From a virus, in the UHGV virus genome UHGV-0093339: a stretch of DNA of 31,149 nucleotides. One strand, given 5' to 3'. Positions 2,271-28,346 of this stretch are shown one piece after another. The notes beneath the pieces were generated by a model that had not been told where the DNA came from, did not search any database, and saw nothing but the letters and a program-made list of their open reading frames with translations. How positions within the stretch are numbered: position 1 is the first letter of the stretch; each line of letters begins with the position of its first letter. The position numbers and the translations under genes are program-made.

Positions 2271-2301
2271 AAACAAGGCCGCGAAAGCGGCCTGTGACAT
2301 G

Positions 2302-2598
2302 TCACGTTCCTTTTCTGAATGCTAGCCATTCGAAAAATGATGACATTCCACCGCAGACAATAGCAAAGATGATCCCACCAAAGAAGAGAAGGCCAGCCTG
2401 CCACCACTCCCACCGCCATACATCCACAGCGCCAACCATACCAACAATCGCTCCAACAAATGGAATATAGCTCACGATGAAAGCAATGGGGGCTGCAATT
2501 ATCCAGTGCAATCCCCACCATGATTCAAGCCCAGCCATAATTGCTGCCAACTGAAAAAGACCAACGACGATATAAACAATGAATCCTATAGCTTGCAT
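2302..2598 (-). CDS. hypothetical integral membrane protein (98 aa)
   Basis: ORF-track 2302..2751 trimmed to the ATG at 2598 with AGGTGA 5 nt upstream; several hydrophobic helices and W-rich loops; last gene of the leftward virion operon. Confidence 0.55.
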   Translation of the reverse strand: MQAIGFIVYIVVGLFQLAAIMAGLESWWGLHWIIAAPIAFIVSYIPFVGAIVGMVGAVDVWRWEWWQAGLLFFGGIIFAIVCGGMSSFFEWLAFRKGT

Positions 2599-14880: not shown

Positions 14881-16450
14881 TTACACCACGCGGGCTTCTG
14901 TTTCCAGAAGCGCATCAGTTTCACGGATTGGTACACCACGGAATGAAGTCCACCACTCGCCTTCTGTCTCTTTTACGCTGATCGCCAGAGATGTTTTCTC
15001 CAGAGATTGCAGATCAAGAGCCTGGCCTACAGTGCGGTTCATGTAGAACACCGGGCGACCCATGCCACGGTTTGGAATTCGATGCAGTGCTTTAACCATC
15101 AACTTCGCAATATTTGCGGCAGAGGAAGGTTCTGAAAGATTGCTGACATCGATGTTTGCAATGCGAACAACATAACGCCAGTCACGCAGAGCAAGTCCGT
15201 TATCCCATTTGTAATGGGTGCGATAGCCTTCGTACTTGCCGCCATTAGCATCTTCCAGTGTCACCTGGCCTTTATCTTCCATCTGGATGCCAGCCTTCTG
15301 CCCTTTCGGGAAGATGCCATGCACGGTGTTTTCGCCCCACACCACTAACCAGATTGAGGTGTTATCTGTACCCGTGCCACCAGCATCAATGATGTTCTGA
15401 GCATTACCCGCAGACAGGCTGGAATAGCGGGAGGACAGTCCCATAAACTGCTGAGGGTTAACGCTGGAATCACCATAAAACAGCGTCTGCGCCATCTGCT
15501 GATTCATCGCTTCAATAAATGCGCGGTCTTCAGACAGGCGGAATTCGGCGGTATTGCCGTTCAGATCAGCCAGTGACTTATCGACTTCAGCATAGGTTTC
15601 CAGCATGCCCACGGAATCGGTTACCCGGGCATGATGATCCATAAACATCTTCGCCGTTAACTTCCCAGCGCGGAGCCATAATTGGAAACTCATCGAATCC
15701 GGACTCACGCAACAACTTGTCGTTATCGCCACCAACCTCGTAATAAACCGATTTGAATGGCTTGTTCTTGCTATCCAGCTTCGATGTATCGCGGTCAATG
15801 TTCGGGTAAACCGAATGCATCACTTCAATCCACTTCTCGTAGGTGCCGCTTTCCCACATGCTTTTTACGGATTCGCTGACGTTATTTAGCCCGAACTCCT
15901 GAACAAGCTGACGAACAGTCATAGCGAACTTGCGAAAACAGGTGTCCACACTGCCACGAGGTGAGTTAGCCAGGTAGTAACTGCCTATCGGGAATGGCAT
16001 TGTGCGAATGATGTCCTCGTCATCTTCCAGCACTGCCATTGCACCAGTGCTGTATGTGCCGAGGCTTCCGTATAACTGCGGCAGCGACTGATAGAGATTC
16101 GACTTATTGAACATATCGTTCATGCGGTTCTGCACCGCCTCAAGCCACAACTTAACAGGGCCATAATCCATCATTTCAGGATCTGGCGTAGCCAGGCGAA
16201 ACCACGGACGCGCGGGGCTTGTGATGCCTGACACCATGCCGCTGGCGAGAGTGCGCGCCGCCATAGTCCCGGTCGAATCAATAATGCGTGTATTGCGTCG
16301 ATCGTTACGGTTGACCTCAGAAGTCAGAAAGCGGGAACCACGCGGGTTGATGTAATCACTCAACTCGCGCCAGTGCGGCTCGAACGACTGACGCTCGCTT
16401 TCAAGTTGTGCGAACTGTTTGTTCAATCGCTCTTTAGTTGTTTCCGCCAT
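14881..16450 (-). pseudogene. portal-like head gene split between two reading frames near 15620-15650
   Basis: ORF-track 15587..16450 and 14881..15798 overlap by about 70 codons in different frames; protein-like sequence ends in one frame at ...PRWEVNGEDVYG and resumes in the other at ...ARVTDSVGMLETYAEV; N-terminus and the GE(D/S)YG region resemble the T7 portal from memory; the listed start of the second ORF is a TTG. Confidence 0.45.
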
Positions 16451-16671: not shown

Positions 16672-16761
16672 ATCAATGACTCCGTACGCAATTAAATTAT
16701 TACCAATTTAACCACATATGATTTATTTATCGTAGATAGTTGACATTTAACGCACAAATTA

Positions 16762-16776
16762 TTACCTTTCAGGTAA
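16762..16776. promoter_or_regulatory. operator-like dyad TTACCTTTCAGGTAA upstream of the head operon
   Basis: Perfect TTACC-N5-GGTAA; a TTGACA hexamer on the plus strand lies at 16740-16745. Confidence 0.4.
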
Positions 16777-17098
16777 CCAAAGAGTTCATTCCGGTTACTA
16801 ACCTGACTGGCTTGTCGTTAAATTGAACAGGTGGAGTGAGCTTTTATTTTGAGCAGTACGGCGTATGGCACATGCGCCGATAGCGGTCTGGATACGTTTA
16901 AGGGGCACCCTCCCTTGCTCGGGCAAACGAACCAGGTAGCCGGAATGTGCAAGTCGAGCGGTTTTATTCCGCGCACGGGGATTCACCATCCCGGCGATTC
17001 GGTGTGACGCCTCGGAAGAGACGAGGGTACAACGATGAGAGCATTTATGGAGCCGCGACAAAGTGTGGTGCCTTAACAGGCTAAGTGCTCTCAGCGTT

Positions 17099-17175
17099 GT
17101 GGCATTAGCTCAGTTGGACAGAGCAACCGCCTTCTAAGCGGTTGGTCGCAGGTTCGAATCCTGCATGCCACGCCA
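17099..17175 (+). tRNA. tRNA-Arg (anticodon TCT)
   Basis: Cloverleaf folded by hand: 7-bp acceptor stem gtggcat/atgccac, D-arm gctc-agttggaca-gagc, anticodon stem accgc/gcggt with loop cttctaa (anticodon TCT at 17133-17135), T-arm gcagg-ttcgaat-cctgc, discriminator G and encoded CCA. Confidence 0.85.
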
Positions 17176-17218
17176 GAATCACGCCTAAGGACCGTGATGC
17201 CAGAAGTTCCAGGGGCTT

Positions 17219-17260
17219 GGCGGTGATGGTTTCCCTTGAAGGACTATCACCGCCCTTTTT
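17219..17260 (+). terminator. putative intrinsic terminator downstream of the tRNA
   Basis: ggcggtgat...atcaccgcc stem followed by TTTTT. Confidence 0.5.
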
Positions 17261-17338
17261 ACAGCAGGACGCCATTGCGATGACTTCATGCTGTAAACCA
17301 GTACAGCCACGGAAGGCATAACTCATTGCTTCCAGTTC

Positions 17339-17362
17339 GCCCGGTTCGCCGGGCATTTTTTT
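17339..17362 (+). terminator. intrinsic terminator
   Basis: gcccgg-ttcg-ccgggc hairpin followed by seven T. Confidence 0.6.
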
Positions 17363-17378
17363 AAGGTGAGATTAGACT

Positions 17379-17750
17379 ATGAGTGACAAAGACATTGAAT
17401 CTGAAATTCAGGCTAAAGGTTTAGCCGCGCCGCGCGTTACGCCAGACCATATCGAGAGCATTATTGCTCAGGAGGCATATTTCACAGCAGAAGATGGTGC
17501 CTTTGGCGTAGCCATAAAAGCGAAACATACTGGCGGAGAGGTAAACTACCAGCCGCACGAATCACTTTCTCTGCTGACGTTCTGCGTCCTGGTGCTGCGC
17601 AACGGCTTCACCGTCACCGGAGAGAGCGCCTGTGCAAGCCCGGAAAACTTTGATGCAGAAATTGGTCGGAAGATTGCCCGACAGAATGCTGTAAACAAAA
17701 TCTGGATGCTTGAAGGTTACTTGCTGAAGCAGAAGTTAAGCGAGCAATAA
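17379..17750 (+). CDS. hypothetical protein (123 aa), moron gene
   Basis: ORF-track; AAGGTGAG RBS; plus-strand gene embedded between the terminase gene and the head genes, both on the minus strand. Confidence 0.6.
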   Translation: MSDKDIESEIQAKGLAAPRVTPDHIESIIAQEAYFTAEDGAFGVAIKAKHTGGEVNYQPHESLSLLTFCVLVLRNGFTVTGESACASPENFDAEIGRKIARQNAVNKIWMLEGYLLKQKLSEQ

Positions 17751-17840
17751 CACCGTGACATATCACAAACAGCCAGCCTATGAGCTGGCTTTGTTTTATC
17801 CTCATCAGAGGATATCAACAACATTATCCCCTCAAGCGGA

Positions 17841-19316
17841 TTAAGCATAGGGATCGTAATCTGTGATGGCCTTGCCTTGCTGGTTCTGCTGCCCGGGAAT
17901 TCGCAGACGCTTAGACACAGGGAACGCAAACGTCAGCAGTAGCGCATCGCCTTTACCCGGCGAACGCCCAAGCCGCTCCTTGATATCTTCCTTCGGTTCG
18001 ATAACGATTTTACCGTCCACGCGAACTTTGTACTCTGCCGCCGACAGATCGTCCGCTGTTTCCTGGTCATCCAGCATCCCTCCCAACCTCAGCCATGTCT
18101 TGCATGAGTTGAACATCTCCCCACGCTTGTTAAGCATCTGCGGGTCAGTGGACGCACCGCCGAACGGAACAAGTTGCCATGTACGACCCCAGCCATCACC
18201 GATTGACTTCAGACCGGTTCCGTAACCGAAGTCAATGAACACCGCGTCAGCATTGTACTGGTCTTCAAAGTCAGCGATACGCTTCGCCATAATCAGATCG
18301 TCAGTGGTCTTGTTGCCAGTCCATAGCATCTTACTATGCAACCCCTGCCGCAGGTATATCACCGCGTCATCAACGCCGGAGTATGCCGGGTCAACGCCGA
18401 TTATCACCGGAGCATGTGCAACCTGCGCAGCGGTTACCACCCGTTTCATTGCCTCATCAGTAAGACCGGTAGGGATAAACTGCAATTCAGATGCATCAGG
18501 GAATATGCCGCGCACACGGATTTTAACGAAGTCGCTGTCTTCCCCGTAGTCATCAACCCATTTCTGCAACTGCTGTTTGTTAGTGCCTTCCACCGTCCGG
18601 CTGTCAATCTGCGCAGTTTTCCAGCGGTGTTTATATTTGCGGAAACATTCGCGGAAACGCCCGGTATTACGCGTCGGGTTCCCGAACGCCACCCAGATGA
18701 TTTCGGTGTCTTCGTCCGTCAGCGCACCCTCTGCTACCTCCCACACCAGATCGGCAATGTTGGATGCTTCGTCGAAAACCACGATGATGCGTTTGCGCTC
18801 GTTGTGTAGTCCGGCGAATGCCTCAGTGTTGTGCTCAGACCAGGGGATTGCGTCAGCTCGCCACCGCTTGTCGTGCCCAGGATCATTGCTGTACATCGCG
18901 GTAGCGGTACAGGTAAACCAGTCTTTCGTGATGGCAAGGTTCGACCACTTGATAATTTCCGGCCAGGTCTTCGTTCGTAGCTGGTTGTCGGTGTTGGCGG
19001 TCACCACGACCTTACAATCCTCGCAAGTGGACATGCCCCAGTTGATCAGCATTGAGATGAATGCGGATTTACCAATACCGTGACCAGAAGCGCGTGCCAG
19101 CATAAGCGGCTGATAGCGCGTCTCTGGATTCTGCAGGTGATCACGTATCTCTCGGAACGCATCGGCCTGCCACTGACGTGGACCGGTAGCATGTGCCAGT
19201 TCAGTCCCCTCTTCCCCCCAAGGGAACGCATAGAGGGCATAGCCAAGCGGATCGTGAGTGAACCCTGCAATATCTTCGATTAACTGCTCTTCAGGAGATA
19301 ACGCTGCATCTGTCAC
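17841..19316 (-). CDS. terL: terminase large subunit
   Basis: 491-aa ORF with an N-terminal ATPase-like region (GHGIGKS P-loop-like, VVFDEAS Walker B-like) and a C-terminal nuclease-like half; overlaps the small-subunit gene stop. Confidence 0.8.
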   Translation of the reverse strand: MTDAALSPEEQLIEDIAGFTHDPLGYALYAFPWGEEGTELAHATGPRQWQADAFREIRDHLQNPETRYQPLMLARASGHGIGKSAFISMLINWGMSTCEDCKVVVTANTDNQLRTKTWPEIIKWSNLAITKDWFTCTATAMYSNDPGHDKRWRADAIPWSEHNTEAFAGLHNERKRIIVVFDEASNIADLVWEVAEGALTDEDTEIIWVAFGNPTRNTGRFRECFRKYKHRWKTAQIDSRTVEGTNKQQLQKWVDDYGEDSDFVKIRVRGIFPDASELQFIPTGLTDEAMKRVVTAAQVAHAPVIIGVDPAYSGVDDAVIYLRQGLHSKMLWTGNKTTDDLIMAKRIADFEDQYNADAVFIDFGYGTGLKSIGDGWGRTWQLVPFGGASTDPQMLNKRGEMFNSCKTWLRLGGMLDDQETADDLSAAEYKVRVDGKIVIEPKEDIKERLGRSPGKGDALLLTFAFPVSKRLRIPGQQNQQGKAITDYDPYA

Positions 19317-19945
19317 TGATTACCATCCTGACGTTCTTTGAGTCGCTTCCTGGCTGCTGCTATGCGATCAGCAATTGTCACATTCACATTAACATCCAGG
19401 CGTTCTTTGAATGCGTTGACGTCGACGTGCTTACCGATGAGCTCGAGGTTTTTCACCTTGTCGGGCCATTTCACCTTCTTCAGGATATGCTCGACATCCT
19501 CAACAGAGAGATCCGCCTCGCCATTCTCTTTTTGCAGGGAAGCCTGGGTTGTCTTGATGGTAGCGATATCCATAGCACTGAGAGAGGTACGCCAGACCTT
19601 CGGCCATTCAGCGATCGGCTTCATCCCGCCGTCATCGTTCAGTATATCCAGCACGTCCATCTGGTCTATTTCCACCAGGCGCATGAGAACGTAATCAGCA
19701 CTGACGCGCATTCGTTTGTTGCGCTCCTCCATCAACTCGGCAATCCGTTTTTGAATGCGTTCATCGCGCATCATGACACTGGCTTTAACTGCCGCTGTAT
19801 TTGGGGAGAATCCTGCATTAATCGCTGCCTGAGTCTGGTTTTCAGGCGTTTTGATGTATGACTGGCAATAAGCCTCCTGCATTGCTGTTAGTGGCTTAAA
19901 TTGCGTTGATTTGCGTTTATAGGTTTTAGGTTCAGCAGGCATCAT
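19313..19945 (-). CDS. terS: terminase small subunit
   Basis: ORF-track 19313..20023 (listed start is a TTG) trimmed to the ATG at 19945; sits immediately upstream of terL; resembles small-terminase proteins from memory. Confidence 0.65.
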   Translation of the reverse strand: MMPAEPKTYKRKSTQFKPLTAMQEAYCQSYIKTPENQTQAAINAGFSPNTAAVKASVMMRDERIQKRIAELMEERNKRMRVSADYVLMRLVEIDQMDVLDILNDDGGMKPIAEWPKVWRTSLSAMDIATIKTTQASLQKENGEADLSVEDVEHILKKVKWPDKVKNLELIGKHVDVNAFKERLDVNVNVTIADRIAAARKRLKERQDGNQ

Positions 19946-19952
19946 AACCACC

Positions 19953-19984
19953 GTGGTAATAGTTACCGTTGTGGTAATAGTACC
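19953..19984. repeat. tandem 14-bp repeats GTGGTAATAGT(T)ACC upstream of terS
   Basis: Two near-identical copies at 19953-19967 and 19971-19984; each has internal dyad symmetry (GGTAA-TAG-TTACC and TGGTA-ATAG-TACCA). Confidence 0.5.
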
Positions 19985-19986
19985 AT

Positions 19987-20014
19987 GCAAAATAAAGCCG
20001 CCATAGTTGGCGGC
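19987..20014 (-). terminator. intrinsic terminator upstream of the packaging genes
   Basis: gccgcc-aactat-ggcggc hairpin followed on the minus strand by TTTATTTT. Confidence 0.55.
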
Positions 20015-20063
20015 AGTATTCAAAACCCATCAAATTCATCATGCATAATCTACTCGTGACATG

Positions 20064-20402
20064 TCACACTATTAATTTCGTTTCATGCCAGCCTTTAGTC
20101 ACCCAGCATTGCGAGTCACCATTACACGGGCATGAATTCACAGGAACTCTCTCGCCGCACTTACCGCAACGTTTTCTGCTGATCGATTTTATACGCCCGT
20201 GCGCGCGAGCATCATCCTGGCGGATAAGTAACGCAATATACTCACCAAATTCGTAAGGCACACGCCCGGGGCGACGCGTGGCGCAGTTCCGCTCCAGCAT
20301 TTCAATTTCCTGAGCATCAAGCACAATCTCCAGCTTACGTACACCGGATGCAGCTTGTCTGGCTCTCTGAGCGGCTTTGCGCTCTGCTGCTGATTTAGCC
20401 AT
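20064..20402 (-). CDS. hypothetical Cys-rich protein (112 aa), possible late-gene regulator
   Basis: ORF-track; basic N-terminal helix plus C-terminal cluster CGKCGERVPVNSCPCNGDSQC; sits directly upstream of the terminator and the terS repeats. Confidence 0.5.
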   Translation of the reverse strand: MAKSAAERKAAQRARQAASGVRKLEIVLDAQEIEMLERNCATRRPGRVPYEFGEYIALLIRQDDARAHGRIKSISRKRCGKCGERVPVNSCPCNGDSQCWVTKGWHETKLIV

Positions 20403-20760
20403 TCTGATTTTCCTGCATCATGAGAAATACAATCATGGCGGCTCGGAGGGGATTTTCATGTATAGCTCGCTTAGATTTACAGTAGGCCACACCGCGTGCA
20501 CCCCACTCGTCTTCATCGAGATTGATAATGCTAATCCTGTATTTTTCAATAATCGGCCATGCGTCTGCTGGGTTTGCGCATGGGTTAAAGGATCCGCGCT
20601 CAACTTCTACTTCAACTGCGTCTCCGTTTACAATGTCTCCCTCAAATGAGACAAACACCATATCGCCATTCTCACCTTCTTTGTAATCCGGTGATCCGTT
20701 ATGAATGGCTTCGAATACCGCCACGTTAATTTCAAAATCACTTAACTGTGAATAGTCCAT
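20395..20760 (-). CDS. hypothetical protein (121 aa), possibly DUF2591/NinX-like
   Basis: ORF-track 20395..20763 trimmed to the second ATG, which overlaps the upstream stop; N-terminus MDYSQLSDFEIN recalled from lambdoid nin-region proteins; family name uncertain. Confidence 0.5.
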   Translation of the reverse strand: MDYSQLSDFEINVAVFEAIHNGSPDYKEGENGDMVFVSFEGDIVNGDAVEVEVERGSFNPCANPADAWPIIEKYRISIINLDEDEWGARGVAYCKSKRAIHENPLRAAMIVFLMMQENQNG

Positions 20761-21944
20761 CACTTAACCTCCTGCTGCGGTGCTGCTGGCATTTCACGCC
20801 AGTGCGTAACTGAGTGCGGATCCGGATATTCGGTGCCATCATCCCAGCGATTGCCATTCCACATTGCAGACCACATCTCACCGTCTTCATACATGACCAT
20901 TACCGGAATTAACTTATCCGGCATTCGCTCACTACAGCTTATCCAACCATCCGGAATTACCGGAGAGTTGCCATTTACCAAGTCAGCTCGAACATATAGC
21001 GTGTCATCATGGTGCTGATTGTGGCTGCACCATGTTAATTCGCTTAACTCGCCATCTTCTGGCCATACTCCAGCTGTTTGCAGCCAGATATGGGCTGGCG
21101 CATCCTGGCAAGGTGTATTAACTGGAAACTTGTAAGTTTGGCTTACAGGTTGGCTACCCTGAAGCATGGCAGCGTGGCAGGCATACTCAACGCCCTTAAC
21201 TGCATCTGCGCAGTAGTTATAGCGATTGCATTCCACTAATTTCCGTTTGAGTTTTTCAATTGCCTGCGCGACATCAGCCTGTATTACAGGAACTGGCGGA
21301 ACGGCTGTTTGCTCTCGAACGTCATTAGTCGCTATCGGTTCTGCTGCCAACTGACTGGCATATTTGTTAATGGTAACGATAAGCTCTTGCTCAGCCTCAT
21401 CCAGACAATCACCGATACCTCGCCTGTCACCGTCAAAATCATCGAAATCGGCACGAATCTTGGCAACCTTCAGGATTGCGGACAACACCTCACTAGGAAT
21501 TACCGGATAGTTGGTTGACGTTTCCGCGATTTCCCGAAAATTATTGGTTGACGAATTCTTGTTTTCCCGAAAGTTTCCGGACTGAAGCATGGCGGCGCGA
21601 TAGGCGTTCCAGCCGACAGCTTTTCCGTGTTCAAACGCGCTGTCAAAGTCATCATCAATTTCCATCGCAGCGGGCACAGATACCGGCGCCGGATGGGCGG
21701 TGTACAAGCGAGTTCCATCCTTGAAGTTTTCCCAATCAGCCTGTCCATCAGCGGCTATGCACACCACCTTCGCATCCGGGTGGCATCCGCAATCGTCATA
21801 CTCACCGAGGACAACCTCGCCAACAGCCTCCGCTTCGAGCAATGCCAGCGCGATACGCGCCAGCTCTGCAATTTCTTCGCCGAGAATAGCCCCGACATTT
21901 TCACGTCTGGATAATTCCGTCAGTCTCTCTTTGGTGAATGTCAT
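20760..21944 (-). CDS. DUF551 domain protein with Ea22-like N-terminal region
   Basis: ORF-track; GGAGG RBS; C-terminal segment ...WISCSERMPDKLIPVMV...THWREMPAAP resembles DUF551 from memory. Confidence 0.55.
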   Translation of the reverse strand: MTFTKERLTELSRRENVGAILGEEIAELARIALALLEAEAVGEVVLGEYDDCGCHPDAKVVCIAADGQADWENFKDGTRLYTAHPAPVSVPAAMEIDDDFDSAFEHGKAVGWNAYRAAMLQSGNFRENKNSSTNNFREIAETSTNYPVIPSEVLSAILKVAKIRADFDDFDGDRRGIGDCLDEAEQELIVTINKYASQLAAEPIATNDVREQTAVPPVPVIQADVAQAIEKLKRKLVECNRYNYCADAVKGVEYACHAAMLQGSQPVSQTYKFPVNTPCQDAPAHIWLQTAGVWPEDGELSELTWCSHNQHHDDTLYVRADLVNGNSPVIPDGWISCSERMPDKLIPVMVMYEDGEMWSAMWNGNRWDDGTEYPDPHSVTHWREMPAAPQQEVK

Positions 21945-21947
21945 GGG

Positions 21948-22478
21948 TTAGTCCTCCCCGTTGATGCGGATGCCAGCGTCGTGCAGCGCCTCAAGCACTT
22001 GATGCTGCTTATAAACCATTTCCGCTTGATACGGCTCGTCGAAATCAGTTCTATGAAGCATGCTGTAGCGCTGCGGGAGCTTCACCTCGCGCGCCTCCAG
22101 CTCGGCCACGCGCTTCTCTGAGTCTTCTGTTTTTCTCCTTAACGCCTCGCTACAACCCTCAGCTTTTCGGATTGCTAACTCCAAGTGTTTATTCAGTGCT
22201 TCTGCGGCTTCCAGCTCATCCAGCAGTGCCAGCACGGTAGCCGGATTGGCTGCGGCGATGAATTCAGCATTGGCCTGCTGTTCCATTTGAAAATCTTCAT
22301 CGAAACCGCTTTCAGGATGCGCCCCTTCAATTCTGCAAATGGGAAGATATCCAACAACTTCACGATGAATTAGCGCATCACCAGCATCAAATCTCTCCTC
22401 TCCATATTCGAGCGACCACACACCACACGTTGCTTTCTCTGCCTTTTCACGCAGTGCCTGATAGTTAATTTTGGTCAT
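21948..22478 (-). CDS. Ead/Ea22-like family protein
   Basis: ORF-track; motifs QALREKAEKAT and AANPATVLALLDELEAAE recalled from lambdoid Ea22-like proteins. Confidence 0.55.
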   Translation of the reverse strand: MTKINYQALREKAEKATCGVWSLEYGEERFDAGDALIHREVVGYLPICRIEGAHPESGFDEDFQMEQQANAEFIAAANPATVLALLDELEAAEALNKHLELAIRKAEGCSEALRRKTEDSEKRVAELEAREVKLPQRYSMLHRTDFDEPYQAEMVYKQHQVLEALHDAGIRINGED

Positions 22479-22479
22479 A

Positions 22480-23142
22480 TCACATCACCCTGAAGCCGTT
22501 GCATTTACGTAAAAAATCGCAGATATAGCCCTTCATTTTTTCTTGCCAATCTCGATCATTCCCATTGCACCAACCATCAGGTGGAGTCCAGTTTTCTATC
22601 AGAGCAGCCATTTTCTTTGCTTTCGTCGGAGTAGCTGTTGCGGTATCACATACGACCCAGTACATAACCGGATGTCGCCACGGGAATCTTTCGGGACCAC
22701 CAGGATATAAACTTTTTTCCTTGCTGTACCGGTGAAACTCCGCCATCACATCGTCAATGGTGACGCCAAGAACCATCTTGCTGTCTTTACACCACTTGAT
22801 GAATTGCCCTGGCGACGGCCAGAACGGAGACTCACTGGCGCGGGCGTGGCGCATACCAGCAGAAACCTGTTCACGGGTTCGGATCCCCCCTTCGGCAAAC
22901 GCAGCAATCCACTGCTGTTTTGCAGCAACTTCCTGCTCTGGCGTCTTCAGGTTGGTTACCACTGCCGCCGGAAACAGTTGTTTCAGCTGTTTGAAAAGGG
23001 CATCAACAAGCCTCTCTGCTGACATGTTCACCACGTTGTCATTGTTGGTGTACTGATGCTCATAACCTGACATGCGAGAAAGGGCTTCTCCGTCACGGTT
23101 TTGTATCGCGGTAAAAACGTTGTTCACAAGAAATCCTCCCAT
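22480..23142 (-). CDS. replication protein P homolog (helicase loader)
   Basis: Segment QLFPAAV...QQWIAAFAEGGIRTREQVSAGMRHARASESPFWPSPGQFIKWCKD parallels lambda P (...QWVLAFRENGITTMEQVNAGMRVARRQNRPFLPSPGQFVAWCRE) from memory; start overlaps the O-like gene. Confidence 0.75.
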   Translation of the reverse strand: MGGFLVNNVFTAIQNRDGEALSRMSGYEHQYTNNDNVVNMSAERLVDALFKQLKQLFPAAVVTNLKTPEQEVAAKQQWIAAFAEGGIRTREQVSAGMRHARASESPFWPSPGQFIKWCKDSKMVLGVTIDDVMAEFHRYSKEKSLYPGGPERFPWRHPVMYWVVCDTATATPTKAKKMAALIENWTPPDGWCNGNDRDWQEKMKGYICDFLRKCNGFRVM

Positions 23143-23939
23143 GCTTCAGGGCTGTTCCAGTGCGGAACGTTGTTATCAGGTAATGTTGATTGCTTCTGTC
23201 TGCTAATCTGCAGCCGCCTTGCCAGCTTCTGCTCCCACTGTGCCTGATGGTATGCCTTACCCTCAGCCATCCAGTAAATTCTGAACTCTGCAAGTTCCTG
23301 TGCCGTTGGCAGACTGTCCAGGTAGATCCCCTGCAATGAGCTTTTCCGAAGAAAGTCATCTGATGGCTGCCATTGTTCATGCATGACAAATTTGCCTAAT
23401 TGCCCTGGCCCACCAGGAGGAACAAAGTTATTCATCACGGCGTTGTTTGCGCCGGGGTCATGATGCACAGAATCCCCGTTTTTTGTCCTGCTCTCCCTCT
23501 CTTGGTTAAATGACTGGTTATATGACTGGTTCTGGATCCCGTTTTTGGGATCATTCAACATCCCGTTTTTGGGATCATTCAACATCCCGTTTTTGGGTAT
23601 ATTCCCGTTTTCGGTAACATTACCGTTTTCGGGTTCATTGCCCCCCTCCCGGTTGCCTTTAATGTTCCCGTTTTTGGTTATATTAAGAGAGAAAACCCGC
23701 ACTCTTTTTGTCGCTCCCTTTCTCTCTCCGGTATCTGAAATAAGCCCCATTTTCATGAGCGATATAAGCCCGGCCTGCACGGTTTTTTTATTCAGGCAAG
23801 TGTCTTTAACGAGGCGTTCTATGCTGGGGTAGCAGAGGTTATATTCATCGGCTCTGTCAGCCATCGAGAGCAGTATGAGCTTTAATGATGAGCTACCTGG
23901 ATCTGTCTCCCAGGCCCAATCTGTTGCATGTCTGCTCAT
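23124..23939 (-). CDS. replication initiator, lambda O-like
   Basis: ORF-track; GGAG RBS; N-terminal HTH-like region; central peptide repeats (PKNGMLNDPKNGMLNDPKNG) encoded by the DNA iterons at 23536-23684; immediately upstream of the P homolog. Confidence 0.65.
   Translation of the reverse strand: MSRHATDWAWETDPGSSSLKLILLSMADRADEYNLCYPSIERLVKDTCLNKKTVQAGLISLMKMGLISDTGERKGATKRVRVFSLNITKNGNIKGNREGGNEPENGNVTENGNIPKNGMLNDPKNGMLNDPKNGIQNQSYNQSFNQERESRTKNGDSVHHDPGANNAVMNNFVPPGGPGQLGKFVMHEQWQPSDDFLRKSSLQGIYLDSLPTAQELAEFRIYWMAEGKAYHQAQWEQKLARRLQISRQKQSTLPDNNVPHWNSPEAWEDFL
23536..23684. repeat. candidate replication origin: iterons with core CCCGTTTTTGG
   Basis: atcccgtttttgggatcattcaac at 23536-23559 and again at 23560-23583, then degenerate copies (cccgtttttgggtatatt, ccgttttcgg twice, ttcccgtttttggttatatt), all inside the O-like gene. 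Confidence 0.6.
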
Positions 23940-23954
23940 GATTAATCTCCGCTA

Positions 23955-24155
23955 TCAGCTTGAATGTTGTGGGGAGGAATTAATCATGATCTGCTTAATC
24001 TCTGCCCTGATGCGACGGTTTGATTCCATGGTGCACTCAACACAGTGTCCGTTGTAAACCCAGCGTTCACTGTCATGTCCGTGCTTACATGGTTTTCCGG
24101 TGTAGTAGCGTTTAAGTCCGCGCTTTGCGGCATCAATACGTGTAATGATTTCCAT
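23955..24155 (-). CDS. hypothetical Cys/His-rich small protein (66 aa)
   Basis: ORF-track 23955..24218 (listed start is a TTG) trimmed to the ATG at 24155; motif KPCKHGH...GHCVEC; occupies the cII position between the Cro-like and O-like genes. Confidence 0.45.
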   Translation of the reverse strand: MEIITRIDAAKRGLKRYYTGKPCKHGHDSERWVYNGHCVECTMESNRRIRAEIKQIMINSSPQHSS

Positions 24156-24235
24156 GGTAAGCCCTGTTATTAGTATTGGGATTACGGTTATTTTGTGCTG
24201 ACACAAAAAAAAGATCAACCAGATTTGGTTTTTTA

Positions 24236-24250
24236 TTACCTTTGAGGTGC
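24236..24250. promoter_or_regulatory. operator-like half-conserved dyad TTACCTTTGAGGTGC
   Basis: Left half-site perfect, right half GGTGC as in the OR site at 24604-24618; lies between the Cro-like gene and the 66-aa gene next to a gaccg...cggtc hairpin. Confidence 0.3.
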
Positions 24251-24305
24251 GAATAGATATGAAAAGACCGCCGGATGACGGTCTACAGAGGGTTGTGGCT
24301 GGATA

Positions 24306-24536
24306 TCATGAGTAGAAGAAGTATGCCAGTTCTGCTTTTGAGCGCAGCCATTGTCTTGTTTTACAGGCTTTAAAAAGCCCATTCATCAATACCTTACCTG
24401 GCATTTTGCGCTTACCTGTTAAGTGAGTCTGGATATAGTGACTCGTCGTTCCGGCTTCCTGTGCGAAGGCTTCACGCTCATCCGGAGTAAGTGCAAGCCA
24501 GTGCTTTTTGAAATCGAAATGTCCGTTATCGCTCAT
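24306..24536 (-). CDS. Cro-like HTH regulator (76 aa), putative
   Basis: ORF-track; HTH-like segment REAFAQEAGTTSHYIQTHLTGKR; transcribed divergently from the CI-like gene across the operator cluster. Confidence 0.55.
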   Translation of the reverse strand: MSDNGHFDFKKHWLALTPDEREAFAQEAGTTSHYIQTHLTGKRKMPGKVLMNGLFKACKTRQWLRSKAELAYFFYS

Positions 24537-24572: not shown

Positions 24573-24635
24573 TCACCCATAAGGTAACAAAAATCAAGGA
24601 TAGTTACCCATGGGGTGCATTTACCTGTTGGGTAA
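24573..24635. promoter_or_regulatory. OR-like operator cluster, three dyads between the divergent Cro-like and CI-like genes
   Basis: Sites at 24573-24587 (tCACC-cataa-GGTAA), 24604-24618 (TTACC-catgg-GGTgc) and 24621-24635 (TTACC-tgttg-GGTAA); a leftward TTGATT -35 candidate at 24597-24592. Confidence 0.6.
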
Positions 24636-24690: not shown

Positions 24691-25275
24691 ATGAAAAGTA
24701 TCCAGGACGTCCGCAGGCAAAATCTCAACGACTTGATCGACCGTGAATTCAATGGTGTTCAGACGCGGATGGCAGAAAAACTTGGAACTCAGGCAAATCT
24801 GGTAAACCGCTGGGCTCTTGGCAAGAAGGTTATCGGCGACCAGGTTGCGCGAAAAATTGAAGCTGCCGCCAATAAACCCCGTAACTGGCTTGATATCGAT
24901 CGCTCGCTTTCTCAGGAAGGTTTTCAGCCTGTCGGACCAAGCGACATTGGTCAACTGGCGGCTCACAACCTGGAACGCTGGATGAGCGAAAGCCGCGACC
25001 TTTCAACACAGGGAAAACTTCACCGCGCATCCGGCGTCGCCCAGGTGACAATCAGCCGCCTGTTAAACAATGAGGTCAGCGTTTCCATTTCCACCCTGGA
25101 GAATGTTGCATCCGCATTCGGGCGTCACGGCTATGAATTACTGATTCACCCGCACGACCCTGCGACCATCAACTATGACCGCTCGCGCTACGCATTGTTA
25201 CCCGAAACCGAGAAAGCAAAGATCGAAAGTTACATTGAATTTGTCATCAACCAGAACGAAAAAAACAAACAATAA
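24691..25275 (+). CDS. CI-like prophage repressor with two HTH domains and no peptidase domain
   Basis: ORF-track; two XRE-type HTH-like segments (QTRMAEKLGTQANLVNRWALGKK and LHRASGVAQVTISRLLNNEVSVS); no Ser/Lys autocleavage module seen; flanked by operator clusters and followed by a terminator. Confidence 0.6.
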   Translation: MKSIQDVRRQNLNDLIDREFNGVQTRMAEKLGTQANLVNRWALGKKVIGDQVARKIEAAANKPRNWLDIDRSLSQEGFQPVGPSDIGQLAAHNLERWMSESRDLSTQGKLHRASGVAQVTISRLLNNEVSVSISTLENVASAFGRHGYELLIHPHDPATINYDRSRYALLPETEKAKIESYIEFVINQNEKNKQ

Positions 25276-25332: not shown

Positions 25333-25409
25333 TTACCTGTCGGGTAATTTTTTTAACTCATATCTATTGACATCAAACCAAATACGAATAATCATTACCT
25401 CAACGGTAA
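25333..25409 (+). promoter_or_regulatory. PL-like early promoter with two flanking dyad operators
   Basis: Perfect dyads at 25333-25347 (TTACC-tgtcg-GGTAA) and 25395-25409 (TTACC-tcaac-GGTAA) bracket TTGACA at 25367-25372 and an A/T-rich -10 region around 25387-25395. Confidence 0.6.
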
Positions 25410-27937: not shown

Positions 27938-28094
27938 GTGTGCTGCTAAGGCACTGGAGCAAATGGTCAGGATGGTACTTATTCCTGGCCTCTGTTTCAG
28001 CATGGCTTTATCTGCTGGCATTAATTTTAAGAGAGGGTTTGATTAAGTGAGAAAGTTAAGCCGACTTGAAAAATATCACATGAATAAGGTTTCA

Positions 28095-28346
28095 ATGCGT
28101 AGTCCGTCAAAGATTGTCGCCGTTACTCCTGCGGCGATAGAGATCGAAAAACGCGCGATTGAAAGAGAGAAAAAAGGGCAGTTCCGCATTGCCGCTCACC
28201 TTTGGCTTCAGTGTATGGATGTTGCTTCTGGTGATGTTGAACGTGCAAGGATCGCGGTTCGCAGGGACCAATGTATCACAAAAGGTAACGGCCTTCGCCG
28301 TGGCGACTATAGCGGCATAGGATGTTGTGGGGTGGTTTATGACTAA
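28095..28346 (+). CDS. PerC-family transcriptional regulator (Pch-like)
   Basis: ORF-track 28047..28346; start placed at the ATG at 28095 with AAGG upstream (28047 or 28080 also possible); segment IEREKKGQFRIAAHLWLQCM...RRDQC matches the PerC/Pch pattern from memory. Confidence 0.55.
   Translation: MRSPSKIVAVTPAAIEIEKRAIEREKKGQFRIAAHLWLQCMDVASGDVERARIAVRRDQCITKGNGLRRGDYSGIGCCGVVYD

Follow-up and report, generated by a model that had tools for sequence, protein, structure and literature searches.

A putative repressor-controlled extended -10 promoter behind the terminator upstream of terS in an epsilon15/phiV10-like prophage

Background

In the virus genome UHGV-0093339 the terminase genes are preceded by an intergenic region that carries a hairpin with a T-run and, behind it, two similar short repeats. 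The question raised by this region is how expression of the terminase genes is controlled, and what part is played by the hairpin, the repeats and the small Cys-rich protein encoded directly upstream. The preliminary description, made from the sequence alone, saw here the arrangement of Q-type antitermination in lambdoid phages, with the 112-aa Cys-rich protein as a candidate late regulator and the repeats as either a regulator binding site or part of a packaging recognition site. The whole stretch of DNA analysed, 31,149 nucleotides in length, is referred to here as the window. The explanation that best accommodates the evidence, with a probability of roughly 0.68, is that the region is the end of the early-right operon followed by an extended -10 promoter for terS-terL, which would be repressed by the prophage repressor Rep.

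The prophage and its terminase genes

The window as a whole is an epsilon15/phiV10-like (Uetakevirus) prophage of E. coli. Positions 17000-24500 share 95-97% identity with phiV10-type Escherichia phages (genus Uetakevirus, type member Salmonella phage epsilon15) and between 19700 and 20500 the sequence matches that of an E. coli ML35 prophage at 100% identity. The order of genes on the minus strand is a cro-like gene, DnaT-like and P-like replication genes, an Ea22-like gene, a DUF551 gene, a NinX-family gene, the 112-aa gene (20064-20402), terS (small terminase, 19313-19942) and terL (large terminase, 17841-19316), which overlaps the terS stop codon. In this prophage the early-right operon ends with the 112-aa gene. 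Past terL there are a convergent Gp49-family gene and a tRNA-Arg gene, followed by the structural genes.

The terS product matches Pfam Terminase_2 (E = 5e-28). The gene begins at the second of two ATG codons (19942), which is kept in relatives that have lost the first, and it lies directly behind the repeats, as had been described. The RefSeq (PGAP) annotation of the identical ML35 prophage places the start at a TTG equivalent to 20023, with the consequence that the terminator hairpin and both of the operators described below fall inside the terS coding sequence. The start of terS should be annotated at the conserved ATG, not at an upstream TTG that swallows a terminator.

Compared with the otherwise near-identical ML35 prophage, the window is without at least about 1.9 kb around 15622, where the portal gene match ends after residue 276 (at 15623) and the sequence picks up within the gene for the major capsid protein (ORF 14881-15798). 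The nin-like region is also short of 1.44 kb (about 22642-22650). These deletions, if real, would leave the prophage unable to make particles. Two tandem copies of TGGGATCATTCAACATCCCGTTTTTGGG are found within the DnaT-like replication initiator gene (23546-23589) and may be origin iterons.

The terminator upstream of terS

The hairpin GCCGCC-AACTAT-GGCGGC is located at 20014-19997 on the minus strand and is followed by the tail TTTATTTT at 19996-19989, as identified by a terminator scan and a repeat finder. The RNA fold has an energy of -16.4 kcal/mol (z = -3.15 against shuffles), and the structure has the features of an intrinsic terminator, with a 7-bp stem containing 6 G-C pairs, a 4-nt loop and the tail UUUAUUUU. 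By both its fold energy and its U-rich tail, the hairpin noted in the preliminary description is a good intrinsic terminator (19988-20014, minus strand), closing the early-right operon.

Conservation of this region was assessed in 156 related loci from viral contigs, which gave 63 distinct 90-nt sequences upstream of terS. The hairpin is found in 41 of these 63 and its stem is near invariant, with one G-U variant, so that covariation is uninformative. When present, it is always upstream of the TGnTAnnAT/O1 module described below. The remaining 22 variants have no hairpin; in its place is a moron that carries a LexA-box promoter together with a umuD-like gene, which reaches the promoter/operator module. 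The terminator is most readily understood as closing whichever transcription unit lies before terS, not as part of a late switch.

The 50 nt separating the 112-aa gene from the hairpin are the remnant of a 77-codon ORF, which is intact in at least 25 close relatives with 186 bp more at this place. What is left is an 8-codon sequence encoding MHDEFDGF and a stop (20020-20046, minus strand), the two intergenic variants being 310 nt and 124 nt. Across the relatives, the interval from the 112-aa gene to terS is a hot spot of moron insertion. Loci L026, L052, L058, L066 and others have the extra 186 bp, with the 77-codon ORF present in some relatives, and L089, L126, L145 and others have about 350-550 bp extra. 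Some relatives carry a near-perfect LexA box (TACTGTTCATATATACAGTA) followed by the umuD-like gene, with no terminator before terS.

Tandem repeats before terS as probable operators

Tandem repeats are present between the terminator and terS, as had been reported, with a period of 18 bp and an exact common core of 11 nt, ACTATTACCAC, on the minus strand (repeat finder). Copy 1, GGTA-CTATTACCAC, is 14 nt long (19984-19971) and copy 2, GGTAACTATTACCAC, is 15 nt long (19967-19953). The two copies are therefore not both 14 bp with an A/C substitution, as first described, and instead differ by a 1-nt indel. Nor are the TTACC and GGTAA half-sites inverted relative to the operator dyad, since across the junction of the copies they read TTACC-ACAAC-GGTAA, which is the form of the operator elsewhere in the window.

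This dyad, O1, occupies 19963-19977, an interval that includes the final base of the -10 hexamer as well as the predicted start of transcription. The second dyad, O2 (TTACC-ACGGT-GGTTA, one mismatch), is at 19945-19959, with a centre-to-centre distance from O1 of 18 bp, and covers the Shine-Dalgarno sequence GGTGG (19952-19948). Of the 63 distinct relatives, every one has a perfect O1 and 56 have O2. The repeat unit as originally drawn was considered as the functional unit and rejected, the gap from GGTAA to the next TTAC varying from 3 to 5 bp among the relatives. The 5' GGTA of the first copy is really the G-n-T-A of a TGnTA sequence, and the pair of tandem repeats is a by-product of a layout made up of a -10 element, O1, 3 bp and O2. 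The suggestion that the repeats are a regulator binding site very probably holds, although in a different register from the one proposed, and the regulator predicted to bind there is most likely the prophage repressor Rep.

The dyad in the window and its association with Rep

The window contains eight matches to TTACC-N3-8-GGTAA, all with a spacing of N5. By chance 0.06 would be expected, and none of 100 shuffles reaches eight. The dyad at 24621, accompanied by weaker sites at 24604 and 24573, is between rep and the cro-like gene (O_R), while those at 25333 and 25395 are just downstream of rep and ahead of the leftward operon (O_L). Two more (230 and 323) precede the region of the C4/isrK RNA and the antirepressor, one (1357) is downstream of the antirepressor-like gene and one (16762) is upstream of the gp3-portal operon. 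The dyad at 19963, upstream of terS, is identical in form to those flanking rep (24621, 25333 and 25395).

The rep gene (24691-25275, plus strand) encodes a homologue of the SPC32H repressor (PDB 5D50, E = 4e-42). As in the SPC32H Rep/Ant system (PDB 5D50, 5D4Z), an antirepressor gene also appears to be present, the window containing a Bro-N antirepressor-like gene at 451-1290 together with C4/isrK RNAs. Epsilon15 has 11 copies of TTACC-N5-GGTAA and Tyrion has 9, whereas N15 and ZF40 have none. Since N15 and ZF40 do encode homologues of the 112-aa protein, the distribution of the dyad follows immunity of the Rep type, not the presence of the 112-aa family. Pairs of dyads in tandem, 17-18 bp apart, are restricted to O_R and terS in the window, and the same is true of epsilon15 and Tyrion. 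SPC32H Rep has been described as a tetramer that binds palindromic sites via domain pairs from different dimers (PMC9638917). By analogy, a Rep tetramer with two such domain pairs fits the tandem dyad layout. The half-sites are identical in all 156 related loci, which are thus without heteroimmune variation of the operator against the repressor.

Other features are associated with these operators. Rfam matches place isrK at 374-450 and the C4 antisense RNA at 469-555, just downstream of operators 230 and 323 and partly overlapping the Bro-N antirepressor-like ORF. This arrangement has the appearance of an RNA layer of the P1/P7 type superimposed on a Rep/Ant switch. On the plus strand, a perfect TTGACA is found 17 nt from a TACCTT that is inside operator 16762, directed toward the tRNA-Arg(tct) gene and the Gp49-family gene (16740-16776, 17099-17175). 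Because this promoter-like match overlaps the operator, the tRNA-Arg(tct)/Gp49-family morons also appear to be repressor-controlled. For the gp3-portal operon, no convincing promoter was found on the minus strand.

An extended -10 promoter signature adjoining O1

Directly behind the terminator is the sequence TGgTACTAT (19977-19985, minus strand), with the TG at 19985-19984 and the hexamer at 19982-19977. T-8, G-7, T-5, A-4, A-1 and T0 are the same in all 63 distinct relatives. Position -6, in contrast, varies fully (G in 23, T in 22 and A in 18), and position -3 varies too. This pattern of conservation upstream of O1 reads as an extended -10 signature, TGnTAnnnT. The bases A-1 and T0 could alternatively be conserved as flanks of the operator and not as -10 bases. 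No -35 sequence is conserved in the expected region among the 63 relatives, and it is because there is no -35 that a generic promoter scan made no call at TGgTACTAT.

The last T of the hexamer is also the first T of the TTACC of O1. This fusion of a -10 sequence and an operator recurs at three other operators in the window, all of which have good -35 boxes. They are the sites at 323 (the ant promoter, TTGATT-18-TATCAT), 1357 (TTGGCG-18-TAATAT) and 25395 (P_L, TTGACA-17-AATCAT). O1 likewise adjoins the core of the putative terS promoter. From these sequence elements, the over-representation of the dyad, its pattern of conservation and the homology of Rep, we infer promoter activity, a transcription start and Rep binding at terS.

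The sequence of events would be as follows. Early-right transcription on the minus strand would stop at the intrinsic terminator (20014-19988), and directly behind it TGgTACTAT (19985-19977) would act as a -35-independent extended -10 promoter, its last base being the first base of O1. In the lysogen a Rep tetramer of the SPC32H type, with its two DNA-binding pairs, would be positioned on O1 and O2. Its occupancy of these sites would block RNA polymerase at the -10 and at the start site, keeping terS-terL silent. Removal of Rep by the antirepressor would then allow the promoter to fire alone, without read-through of the terminator.

If there is a delay of the late genes relative to the early genes, control of terS by Rep alone would give no explanation for it. 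The leftward early operon contains a small PerC/ANR-like regulator (28047-28346; Pfam PerC E = 6e-7, and an NCBIfam ANR_neg_reg match at E = 3e-5 that is below the cut-off), which is another candidate for control of later genes.

The epsilon15 reference genome (NC_004775) already includes predicted annotations of a homologous terminator and repressor site, as a 'rho-independent terminator' at 39646-39672 and a 'protein_bind repressor' at 12-27. Epsilon15 has the same hairpin, the same TTACC-N5-GGTAA upstream of terS and a gp49-type gene before terS. However, the predicted annotation has one site only and names no promoter, whereas the window has a second, near-perfect site. New here, beyond the epsilon15 annotation, are the extended -10 reading and the conservation data.

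Alternative explanations for the region

Of the other explanations, the one that survives best is that there is no promoter at the dyads, so that terS would be transcribed by read-through from upstream and the dyads would serve only as a Rep roadblock or a block in the translational region. The absence of a -35 element and of a call by the generic promoter scan is consistent with this, as are the overlap of O2 with the ribosome-binding site and those moron-bearing relatives in which no terminator separates the upstream gene from terS. However, the TG and TA upstream of O1 are invariant amid positions that vary freely, and the identical fusion of -10 and operator is found at three sites with good -35 boxes. 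In addition, the strong terminator before the dyads in 41 of the 63 variants would starve terS of transcripts. Read-through as the source of terS expression is therefore rather unlikely.

It has also been suggested that the repeats could belong to a packaging site, and they might be, or overlap, a pac site bound by TerS. Their position immediately upstream of terS would suit such a role, and this junction is where the GenBank records of phiV10, epsilon15, Tyrion and SPN1S begin, with the terL of the epsilon15 record annotated as HHpred-similar to the Sf6 large terminase gp2. The opening point of a record may, however, be a convention, and these records are without information on DNA ends. The same dyad also occurs at seven other places, including both sides of rep. 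A pac site is quite improbable. A literature search on Uetakevirus packaging found nothing, and the ZX5 paper and the epsilon15 packaging paper contain nothing on late control or DNA ends.

In a Q-type system, a constitutive late promoter before the hairpin would produce a short terminated RNA, and the 112-aa protein would modify RNA polymerase so that it reads through into terS. There is a likeness to the Q/qut/tR' arrangement of lambda in that a terminator does stand between the early genes and the late (terminase) genes, a weak σ70-like match (GTGACA-18-CATGAT, 20067-20038) is present upstream of the hairpin, and no other late regulator is evident in the interval from rep to terS. However, this σ70-like match sits in the remnant of the deleted ORF, where many relatives have 186 bp of coding sequence, and since that ORF is intact in relatives the match is rejected as non-conserved. 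The sole conserved promoter-like element, TGnTAnnAT, is downstream of the hairpin, so late transcripts starting from it would never meet the terminator. The order is thus terminator then promoter, not promoter then terminator as in lambda, and unlike in lambda the predicted late promoter carries repressor operators and the terminator is dispensable, being absent from 22 of the 63 variants.

A protein of the Q family is also lacking. The 112-aa protein has no match to the Q or Ogr families, with searches of Pfam, NCBIfam and PDB sequences returning no Q-family relative, and the only proteins that its structural model resembles are of the ribbon-helix-helix class. The other early genes tested included no Q-like gene. 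Position next to terS, on which the proposed role as a late regulator was based, is not a property of the family, as homologues in N15, ZF40, Pantoea phage AH07 and P2-like Yersinia phages do not adjoin terS, and N15 and ZF40 have genuine Q-like genes as well. Antitermination of the Q type, the mechanism first proposed for this locus, is highly improbable.

The 112-aa protein

The 112-codon ORF is real and its product is a member of a large conserved family. It is a homologue of epsilon15 gp49 and N15 gp46 and matches phrog_536, 'transcriptional regulator' (E = 2e-53), with 711 related database clusters, nearly all of which are unnamed. Homologues are found in the early regions of N15 (gp46) and ZF40 (gp22) and also in P2-like Yersinia phages and Pantoea phage AH07. 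The protein has a basic N-terminus and a C-terminal cluster, C79-x2-C82-x8-C91-x7-C99; C40, C79, C82, C91 and C99 are invariant across distant homologues. No Pfam family above threshold and no sequence relative in the PDB was identified, and the only NCBIfam match was a sub-threshold one to a CopB-like 'LexA regulated protein'.

An AlphaFold model built from 35 sequences has a mean pLDDT of 68.9, with helices at residues 5-18, 30-43, 52-75 and 104-111. The best fold matches of this model, which are weak, are to ribbon-helix-helix proteins, a class of regulators including CopG/Arc/MetJ, TacA and TraM. On the basis of the model, the core of the protein is probably a ribbon-helix-helix. Homology to MatP was considered and rejected, the hhalign probability being 0.2%.

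A palindrome at the stop codon of the 112-aa gene

The 12-bp palindrome GTGACATGTCAC is located at 20056-20067, where the TGA stop codon of the 112-aa gene forms its positions 2-4, and is a candidate binding site of the 112-aa protein. A second copy in the window (2294-2305) overlaps the stop codon with which the structural operon's last gene ends and is immediately adjacent to the operon terminator. A third (17755-17766), with one mismatch, follows the terL terminator at a distance of 5 nt. In epsilon15 each of the three homologous places (2142, 19517 and 39612) has a perfect copy, and Tyrion has two copies and a third that is split between the two ends of its record. The Uetakevirus copies adjoin the intrinsic terminators that close three rightward operons, which are also places of moron insertion.

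Palindromes of this type are also found in unrelated phages that encode a member of the family. ZF40 has three perfect copies (5125, 7622 and 14944), one of which follows the gp22 stop codon at a distance of 3 nt. N15, with a protein of only 35% identity, has three copies (28550, 33237 and 39269) of its own variant, GTGAC(TG/CA)GTCAC, all with its own centre dinucleotide (TG/CA) and one overlapping the gp46 stop codon. In Pantoea phage AH07, GTGACCTGTCAC is over the stop codon of the phrog_536 homologue. There are about three copies of GTGAC-N2-GTCAC per genome in ZF40, N15 and the Uetakeviruses examined, where chance would give about 0.04 per 31 kb, and no copies with a 1-, 3- or 4-bp centre are present in the window, epsilon15, Tyrion, ZF40 or N15. 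A scan of viral contigs for TGTGACATGTCACA returned 120 stretches, among which 31 encode a family member, and in 21 of these 31 the palindrome abuts the stop codon of the gene.

These associations suggest, tentatively and with the odds still against it, that the 112-aa protein, with its ribbon-helix-helix and four-Cys features, may be a site-specific binder of GTGAC-N2-GTCAC over its own stop codon. The half-sites GTGAC/GTCAC equal those of matS, for which the consensus is GTGACRNYGTCAC (PMC6907758). The palindrome differs in being 12 bp with a 2-bp centre, not a 13-bp site with a 3-bp spacing, and the 112-aa protein is without similarity to MatP. At the palindromes the protein could tune termination or read-through at operon ends, as a late switch tethered to DNA sites, or could act in MatP/matS-like bridging. 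Service as a roadblock, or as a mark for places of module exchange, are other possibilities for the role of the protein at these sites.

Conclusions

The palindrome linked to phrog_536 provides a concrete candidate DNA target for a phage protein that is widespread but functionally uncharacterised. In the many phiV10/epsilon15-like prophages, the repeated sequence ahead of terS should be annotated as repressor operators together with an extended -10 promoter. Control of terS by the repressor would be relevant to the engineering of phiV10-type reporter phages. The immunity repressor, rather than a Q-type cascade, appears to act directly in keeping the packaging genes of this group of phages silent.
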